Shown: piece after piece, positions 97 to 235 of the stretch
Numbering within the stretch: position 1 is the stretch's first letter
Layout: each line of letters starts with the position of its first letter
Virus record (IMG/VR): IMGVR_UViG_2799112330_000002
Coordinates: 1-64,000 of that record
Source of the DNA: a virus
Lineage: Duplodnaviria; Heunggongvirae; Uroviricota; Caudoviricetes
Length of the DNA: 64,000 nt
Reading direction: 5' to 3' (one strand)
The notes under the pieces: generated by a model
The model's input: the letters and a program-made list of their open reading frames with translations, nothing else
What the model was told of the DNA's origin: nothing
The model's database searches: none
Program-made: the position numbers and the translations under genes

Positions 97-235
97 GGCC
101 GGGTGGTGAAATAAAAGAATTTAGCTGTCATCACCCTTCTCTTCTTAGTAAGTAGTCAAGATGTACAGATACTTCGAAGGTATACACGTTAATTTGAGGA
201 ATTAAAGTTTGTTGGTTCAAGTCCAACCCCGGCCA
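97..235 (+). ncRNA. tRNA-Leu(GAG)-like cloverleaf with ~66-nt Y-RNA-like module inserted in the D-loop
   Basis: GGCCGGG/CCCGGCC acceptor, TTAAT-TTGAGGA-ATTAA anticodon arm, GTTGG-TTCAAGT-CCAAC; insert ~113-178 with CTGTCATC/GATGTACAG helix, AGTAGTCA and TACTTCGA. Confidence 0.8.

Follow-up and report, generated by a model that had tools for sequence, protein, structure and literature searches.

The window analysed here, the first 64,000 nucleotides of the viral record IMGVR_UViG_2799112330_000002 (Caudoviricetes), carries at positions 97-235 of its plus strand a tRNA-like gene whose D-loop is interrupted by an insert. We conclude that this locus probably encodes a phage Y RNA built on a complete, free-ended tRNA-shaped body and is neither a decoding tRNA-Leu nor an intron-bearing tRNA gene. 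The original prediction had described it as a tRNA-Leu(GAG) with a circularly permuted Y module in its D-loop. The coordinates and sequence strings given there for 97-235 were all correct, and the observation itself is confirmed: removal of ~113-178 leaves an open-ended cloverleaf, which ARAGORN recognizes after the deletion.

A cloverleaf with a permuted module in its D-loop

The cloverleaf at 97-235 is complete and consists of an open 7-bp acceptor stem, U8-G9 between the acceptor and D-stems, the D-stem, an anticodon arm, a 5-nt variable loop and a canonical T-arm. The insert is 65 nt long (113-177) and is placed between nucleotides 16/17 and G18 of the D-loop, after its AAU and ahead of its GG. 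The parts of the locus, all on the plus strand, are as follows.

97-103 (+): acceptor stem, 5' strand GGCCGGG; pairs with 228-234 (99% paired; 6 of 7 pairs covary)
106-109 (+): D-stem, 5' strand GUG(A); pairs with (A)CAC at 184-187 across the insert (compensatory change in 4 of 4 pairs)
110-112 (+): D-loop A14, A15 and U ahead of the insert; A15 pairs with U210 (Levitt pair)
113-124 (+): proximal linker of the insert, AAAAGAAUUUAG; GAA 117-119 can pair with UUC 173-175, with an AU-to-UA change in four members (GAU/AUC)
125-132 (+): helix B strand matching the 3' arm of the standard module, CUGUCAUC; pairs with 160-168, U164 bulged (6 of 7 pairs covary)
133-140 (+): conserved 3'-side internal loop ACCCUU plus CU, the counterpart of GUUUU-CU or AAUAUU-CU in the standard copies
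141-152 (+): outer helix CUU/AAG with apical loop CUUAGU (144-149), the site of the 5' and 3' ends in the standard module
153-158 (+): invariant core U-AG-UCA, comprising a bulged U, AG (pairs with CU 139-140) and the UCA internal loop (from alignment and parse)
160-168 (+): helix B 5'-arm strand GAUG-U-ACAG (GAUGUACAG) (from covariation and parse)
169-177 (+): AUACUUCGA motif, candidate Ro60 contact (by likeness to YrlA, phage Yrl and animal Y RNA motifs)
178-187 (+): remaining D-loop AGGUAU (G18 G19 = 179-180) and D-stem 3' strand; GG kept in 15 of 16 members
189-205 (+): anticodon-like arm UUAAU-UUGAGGA-AUUAA with loop UUGAGGA (194-200); the stem covaries and the loop is unconserved among homologues
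206-227 (+): 5-nt variable loop (206-210) and T-arm GUUGG-UUCAAGU-CCAAC (211-227) (from sequence and alignment)
228-236 (+): acceptor 3' strand CCCGGCC (228-234), discriminator A235, then C236, as after the ordinary tRNAs of the array

With the insert in place, the locus lacks the contiguous cloverleaf by which RF00005 and ARAGORN recognize a tRNA: neither ARAGORN nor Rfam at its gathering threshold called 97-235, and the Rfam tRNA model (RF00005) gave a partial 22.2-bit match over 179-229, below the gathering value of 29. After in silico deletion of 113-178, or of a segment with boundaries one base off, ARAGORN called a 72-74-nt tRNA-Leu(gag).

The insert runs in the order CUGUCAUC, ACCCUU, CU-CUU, loop CUUAGU, AAG-U-AG, UCA, GAUGUACAG and AUACUUCGA; that is, the 3' arm of the module stands ahead of the 5' arm. 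The module is repeated: the motif TAGTCA-N9-11-TACTTCGA occurs in six copies in the window, all on the plus strand, against 0.01 expected. An automated classifier of standard versus permuted topology was unreliable in AU-rich DNA, so the copies were parsed by hand, segment by segment. All six share a common design. Read 5' to 3' along the permuted copies, it begins with the 3'-side internal loop (GUUUU, AAUAUU or ACCCUU), followed by CU and an outer helix of variable but complementary sequence; next come a bulged U, the AG that pairs with CU, and UCA; then helix B, 9-10 bp long, again variable but complementary and often with one bulged nucleotide; and the last part is (W)UACUUCGA.

The copies differ in what they enclose. 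Those at 459-584 and 23495-23638 have their two arms apart, around a tRNA-like payload; in the copy at 242-375 the arms surround a whole tRNA-Gln, and in the copy at 17353-17440 they surround a small hairpin only. The copies at 97-235 (loop CUUAGU) and 23653-23787 (loop GAAA) are permuted and closed by a hairpin, with the 3' arm ahead of the 5' arm. Besides the D-loop, the attachment points of the handle in this genome include the acceptor stem in 242-375, the anticodon stem in 459-584 and the position of the variable loop in 23495-23638. The copy that the original prediction had taken as its reference (given there as 458-582) is the following.

459-584 (+): standard-topology module with a YrlA-like tRNA domain

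The insert in 97-235 agrees with this copy segment by segment, which bears out the claim that the two are the same module. Also upheld is the claim of a permutation that leaves the tRNA body with free ends, the 3' arm preceding the 5' arm and being joined to it by a loop. The Rfam YrlA model (RF02553) aligns end to end with 459-584 at 30.8 bits, below its gathering value of 69. The name "Y module" appears reasonable from these sequence likenesses, though no database call supports the label. An exact-pattern scan of viral contigs for the 14-base motif returned single, chance-level matches only.

Two further features of the module copies may be mentioned. At the contig start, a truncated tRNA (1-56; window 1-92) is followed by CCAGUUUUCUUUGAA, which resembles the 3' arm (GUUUU-CU-outer helix) of the Y module, and a seventh copy, cut off by the contig end, probably encloses this tRNA. 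In the copy at 459-584, the closing loop of a 7-bp acceptor-like stem begins with GCCA (AUUUUCC-GCCA-UGUUUU-GGAAGAU), and by analogy with the YrlA of M. smegmatis, cleavage by RNase P could give this RNA a CCA end.

A covarying family of D-loop chimeras

The covariance model used for the search started from the two window copies plus two in locus L120 and was later refined; the refined model, R2, gave one extra member. The search revealed 18 D-loop chimeras across about a dozen phage lineages. Near-complete genomes of 171-364 kb carry one to three chimeras each, near the Ro60-like gene described below, and in L118, L120 and L160 one D-loop chimera lies directly 3' of that gene. The bin to which the window contig belongs holds the two window chimeras only, 97-235 and its paralogue.

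23653-23787 (+): second chimera, loop CUGUCCA, with the same D-loop handle (from model search and body comparison)

These data raise a key question: does the insert disrupt a tRNA gene, or is it part of the fold? In the alignment of 16 members, 93.5% of the cells fall in standard pairs, compared with 66.9% after shuffling and 31-46% after sliding, and compensatory changes were found in 27 of the 35 base pairs. Covariation is present in each of the seven helices, also in the D-stem across the insert, for which GUG/CAC, GUUA/UAAC, UGC/GCA and GUUU/AAAC occur among homologues. Five of the seven, namely the acceptor, T- and anticodon stems, helix B and the outer helix, were independently recovered by RNAalifold. 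The tertiary signatures are retained as well: U8 in 14 of 16 members, A14 kept, G18G19 in 15 and the T-loop UUCRANU in all 16, so that the signature set of a tRNA-like L-shape (U8, A14, R15:Y48, G18G19 and T-loop) is held in 14-16 of the 16. The Levitt pair R15:Y48 itself covaries, being A15:U48 in most members and G15:C48 in L180:3318 and L212:164. Because all helices, the D-stem among them, and the Levitt pair covary, the insert is part of a selected L-shaped fold and not a disruption. Thermodynamics alone is uninformative for 97-235 and for the isolated inserts.

The bodies of the two window chimeras are 68% identical, which is at least as high as the similarity of either to any ordinary tRNA of the window. 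Thus, they are paralogues of one RNA family, not two separately invaded tRNA genes. An uninterrupted tRNA with the same body was not found among the loci; junction-spanning matches were D-arms of YrlA-like RNAs only. In distant members, the acceptor stem and the handle are kept and the T-arm is replaced by a GNRA hairpin. At L180:3026-3163, a normal D-arm is followed by the same closed handle where the anticodon arm belongs.

Several observations concern the composition of the family. The L180 gene just mentioned is the first of three tandem handle-bearing tRNA mimics at L180:3026-3455. A distant clade, in which the Ro60-like proteins show 46-50% identity, comprises L136:7227-7340, L130:9635-9752, L153:7358-7472 and L125:14073-14194; here, the acceptor is GGGGRAG and the D-stem directly closes the handle. 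Instead of a T-arm there is a short hairpin in L136 (GNRA-capped), L130 and L153, and the T-arm is imperfect in L125; a Tyr-like loop (CUGUAAA or CAGUAAA) is present in L136, L130 and L125 and not in L153. A second chimera type (window 23653-23787, L186:2943, L180:3318 and L212:164) has a G discriminator and an anticodon-like loop that keeps UGUC (CUGUCCA, AUGUCAA and the 8-nt AUUGUCAA). Judging by these sequences, the loop of the second type seems to be under some constraint, unlike that of type A.

Another important question is whether the leucine identity assigned by the original prediction holds within the family, and it does not. The nearest homologue, L186:3421-3559, is identical at 62 of 68 body positions (91%) and throughout the anticodon stem, whereas its anticodon loop reads UAGGAAA against UUGAGGA in the window copy, with 3 of 7 positions identical and A replacing U33. 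The loops of other members are UAUGGAA, UUUUGGU, UUAUGGC, the 8-nt AUCAUGGC and one of 9 nt. The anticodon loop is the least conserved part of the chimera family. Neither feature of a bacterial class II tRNA-Leu, a long variable arm and an anticodon conserved in orthologues, was found in 97-235, whose variable loop has only 5 nt. The absence of the long variable arm, which the original prediction had remarked on, needs no special explanation, because the RNA is no Leu tRNA.

The flanks of the chimeras resemble those of tRNAs. A C right after the discriminator and an A/U-rich leader were found in 17 of 18 chimeras and in 26 of 28 ordinary tRNAs of the window. Since the chimera flanks match those of the array tRNAs, maturation through the tRNA pathway is suggested, and tRNA-type end processing of the chimeras is likely on sequence grounds. 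The 3' context of the array tRNAs is uniform in its own right, a C then A/U after the discriminator forming a partial CCA in the same 26 of 28; the exceptions are the Y-embedded tRNA-Gln (270-342), locked inside its Y stem, and 6566-6634.

A Ro60-like gene, its linkage to the module and the genomic context

The presumed protein partner of the module is encoded on the same contig and strand as 97-235, an arrangement in keeping with the co-orientation expected of a Y RNA.

11220-12917 (+): Ro60-like gene (TROVE and vWA), 565 aa, recognized by Pfam, profile and fold search

The open reading frame (ORF) at 11220-12917 gave a 26-bit Pfam TROVE match, the sole one in the bin. A single-sequence phmmer search of the protein against PDB and NCBIfam found no match, and profile and fold searches were required. 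A profile of 16 sequences matched the Ro60 of a Thermus phage (9L5Y/9KOP) with an E-value of 2e-8 and Xenopus Ro60 (1YVP) with 6e-5. In a Foldseek search with the AlphaFold (AF2) model (pLDDT 76), the top 13 matches were all Ro60, Rsr or phage Ro60 (E-values 1e-13 to 4e-10); they span nearly the full length, with low TM-scores of 0.31-0.42. The protein has more than 2,300 homologues, many on contigs of 130-320 kb, some of which carry precomputed TROVE, VWA_2 and PF25045 matches. By profile and predicted fold, the partner protein is a member of the Ro60 family. An IF-1 gene (Pfam eIF-1a, 75.7 bits) lies at 12920-13138, 3 nt past the stop codon of the Ro60-like gene.

To assess the linkage between gene and module, we used 52 viral and 80 metagenome loci around Ro60-like homologues of 37-94% identity, which correspond to 130 unique loci and 1.33 Mb. 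The strict motif AGTCA-N8-12-TWCWTCG was found 121 times on the strand of the Ro60-like gene and once on the opposite strand, and 87 of the 121 same-strand copies lie no more than 500 nt from the gene. Bacterial Y RNAs were found by the same kind of gene-linkage evidence (PMC4201824). The suggestion that the module is a protein handle fits these results: a Ro60-like protein is encoded on the contig, and across relatives the module accompanies its gene.

The start of the window lies within a dense array of tRNA genes, with 30 ARAGORN calls and a transfer-messenger RNA (tmRNA). The contig, C82 of a 1.9-Mb bin, begins at window base 1 and belongs to a large, rumen-type phage with a T4-like portal and large terminase. 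Leu tRNAs with the anticodons UAG, AAG and CAA are already present in the window, and the tmRNA is encoded at 23125-23454. It is followed back to back, within 670 nt (23125-23790), by a Y stem that bears a permuted complete tRNA mimic (23495-23638) and by the second chimera. At 18549-18732, two adjacent 90-nt tRNAs carry a small hairpin, capped by GAGA or GCAA, behind the GG of the D-loop; this graft has no relation to the Y handle. The two are Asn and Val according to ARAGORN, but their loops read CUCUUAA and CUUUUAA (Lys-like). A megablast search against phage records gave short tRNA matches to Lak phages only, and a search for related loci with the neighbouring ORF 1826-2827 found nothing. 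One other gene on the same contig enters the argument as context only.

43964-45280 (+): RtcB RNA ligase gene

Competing readings, proposed role and comparison with known systems

Several results weigh against a Y RNA at 97-235. The RF02553 model found no match on 90-242 even at E <= 10. The window copy sits 11 kb from the Ro60-like gene, although on the same strand. The CUUCGAAGG that adjoins the bulged helix is only similar to the GGUCCGA, GNCGAA and CGAA motifs, the motif being UUCGAA and not GNCGAA, and it lies at the tRNA-proximal end of the handle, not near the 5' end as in YrlA. Folded as a single sequence, 97-235 does not take the cloverleaf as its minimum free energy structure (z -2.2), and for the isolated insert z is ~0. 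Finally, the anticodon loop of 97-235 is itself canonical (7 nt, U33, G37) and the ends are tRNA-like, as would suit a translational role of the window copy.

It is nevertheless unlikely that the RNA is a working, aminoacylated tRNA that keeps its handle, decodes CUC/CUU or is charged without anticodon reading, and carries or is regulated by a Ro60-like protein. Such a molecule would make sense of the canonical acceptor stem and T-arm, of A73 and G18G19, of an anticodon loop that has 7 nt, U33 and G37, and of the C that follows the discriminator here just as it does in genuine tRNAs of the array. The insertion falls in the alpha region of the D-loop, a variable stretch where additional nucleotides are tolerated, and bacterial leucyl-tRNA synthetase does not read the anticodon. 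However, the closest homologue has A33 and a different triplet, relatives have loops of 8-9 nt, and the T-arms of distant members are degenerate; the class II variable arm found in every bacterial tRNA-Leu is missing; the window already supplies tRNAs for Leu; and a 65-nt helix at the elbow, possibly with a 60-kDa ring, would be expected to clash with ribosome contacts. Very unlikely, in turn, is the alternative offered by the original prediction, in which the insert is a non-group-I intron that is excised by a nuclease and the D-loop is rejoined by RtcB to give a 73-nt tRNA. Deletion of the insert does yield a clean cloverleaf in ARAGORN, RtcB is encoded on the contig, and archaeal tRNAs carry introns at D-loop positions. 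Yet the junction strands AAAAGAA... and ...UUCGAAGG form no bulge-helix-bulge, their only pairing being a 3-bp GAA:UUC that covaries to GAU:AUC, and the splicing endonuclease (PF01974) was not found in the bin, archaeal controls being positive. Group I, group II and other Rfam intron families gave no match at the locus, and the insert has only 65 nt. Moreover, the insert keeps exactly the nucleotides conserved in the stand-alone modules linked to the Ro60-like gene, the "exons" keep no conserved anticodon, and at L180:3026-3163, where the same hairpin replaces the anticodon arm, its removal would rebuild no tRNA.

If the handle is accepted as real and retained, it might still bind something else than the Ro60-like protein, such as PNPase, a host enzyme or a further phage protein, and the gene linkage would then reflect only a shared island of RNA metabolism. 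The distal two-thirds of the handle (outer helix, bulged U, AG:CU and the UCA/AAUAUU loop) is absent from the Rfam YrlA consensus, and the Yrl RNAs of the Thermus phage bind PNPase too (PMC12135203). The paralogue at 23653-23787 matches Vault RNA at a sub-threshold 19.7 bits (gathering value 34); Rfam gave no Vault RNA match on 97-235. We consider such a partner quite unlikely, because both the strand bias of 121:1 and the concentration of copies within 500 nt of the Ro60-like gene are seen throughout loci of 37-94% protein identity. A dead tRNA gene broken by a mobile repeat, as might be supposed from a module that is repeated in the genome and interrupts a tRNA-like gene, is extremely improbable: in the 18 chimeras, from about a dozen diverged lineages, compensatory changes maintain every helix, conservation extends to the insertion point, the D-stem and the tertiary pairs, and no empty-site tRNA was found.

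For the Y RNA on a free-ended tRNA body, the following mechanism can be proposed. The 97-235 RNA would be transcribed within the tRNA array, and its acceptor stem, T-arm and tRNA-type flanks would allow host RNase P, 3' trimming and CCA completion to excise and stabilize it. The body would fold as an L-shape, as the retention of U8, A14, R15:Y48, G18G19 and the T-loop indicates. The 65-nt bulged hairpin, a circularly permuted version of the handle in the phage's other Y-like RNAs, would be retained and project from the D-loop immediately 5' of G18. The linkage to the gene and the likeness of the motif suggest that it docks the phage-encoded Ro60-like ring protein. The resulting particle would display a tRNA mimic with both its acceptor end and its anticodon-like loop exposed. 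Most probably, though this is speculative, its role would be to deliver Ro60 to enzymes that handle tRNA, perhaps along with an exonuclease or repair enzyme as partner; alternatively, and equally speculatively, it could serve as a bait in the contest between phage and host over tRNAs.

A bolder version is rather unlikely, namely a dual-function molecule that is matured, CCA-tailed and aminoacylated while permanently carrying the Ro60-like ring, as bait or as tether. As bait, it might capture host anticodon nucleases or tRNA-directed defence enzymes and pass damaged RNA to Ro60, an exonuclease or RtcB; as tether, it might bring Ro60 to synthetases, EF-Tu or ribosomes. If true, no earlier Y RNA would have had a chargeable acceptor end that is encoded in a single chain.

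In known Y RNAs, the mimicry of tRNA always goes with tRNA ends that are buried or replaced. Here, with the Ro60 handle moved to the D-loop, the Ro60 particle would present a whole tRNA mimic whose acceptor end is free and whose anticodon-like loop is exposed. The different sites at which the handle is naturally attached give an indication of the tRNA faces that have to remain accessible. In practical terms, tRNA finders miss or mislabel such genes in phage tRNA arrays.

How does this RNA relate to known systems? Archaeal tRNA genes with non-canonical introns, for instance in the D-loop, and permuted or split tRNAs show comparable features, namely an additional helix within the D-loop and recurrent circular permutation, but there the bulge-helix-bulge is cut by EndA and joined by RtcB, while 97-235 has neither bulge-helix-bulge nor EndA and its insert is a conserved functional module. 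The tmRNAs, including the two-piece permuted forms, likewise fuse a tRNA-like acceptor and T-arm domain to a second RNA domain, and one is phage-encoded in the window; in contrast to 97-235, their D/anticodon region is replaced by an mRNA and pseudoknot domain, and they are alanylated and have no Ro60 handle.

Closer relatives are found among phages. Phage Ro60 homologues with Y-like RNAs have been published for mycobacteriophages, CcrColossus and phage G (PMC4201824), for the Thermus phage phiLo (PMC12135203) and for jumbo phages in general (PMC7824862); our literature search found no description of a Y handle in a tRNA D-loop, nor of a one-chain Y RNA with an open acceptor end. The phiLo Ro60 (9L5Y, 9KOP), which is the best match to the window protein in both sequence and fold, binds the phage Yrl RNAs through a CGAA-containing loop, and these RNAs are located next to its gene, as in the phages studied here; Yrl1 and Yrl2, however, are simple stem-bulge-stem RNAs with their 5' and 3' ends in the stem, and no tRNA body or D-loop graft is described for them (PMC12135203). 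The candidate motif AUACUUCGA resembles the GNCGAA of YrlA, the CGAA of the phage Yrl RNAs and the GGUCCGA of animal Y RNAs.

The nearest parallel is provided by the YrlA-type Y RNAs that act with Rsr/Ro60 (RF02553; Chen et al. 2014, PMC4201824), which are likewise linked to a Ro60 gene and join a protein-binding bulged helix with a CGA(A) motif, to which the motif of the window copy is similar, to a tRNA-like domain with D- and T-arm tertiary signatures. In YrlA, the RNA ends lie in the Ro60-binding stem, which replaces the anticodon arm, and the acceptor is closed by a loop. In 97-235 the ends do not pair in such a stem, which is closed by the loop CUUAGU (144-149); they lie in the open acceptor, and the handle is a closed hairpin in the D-loop next to a full anticodon arm. 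In M. smegmatis, RNase P cuts the acceptor loop of YrlA, and the product gains CCA and stays bound to Rsr (PMC4201824), giving an Rsr-bound tRNA mimic with a free tRNA-like acceptor end. The gene at 97-235 is probably a new topological variant of the Y RNA/tRNA-mimic kind: the end state that M. smegmatis reaches with two RNA pieces, by cutting the acceptor loop, is encoded here in one chain by permutation of the handle.
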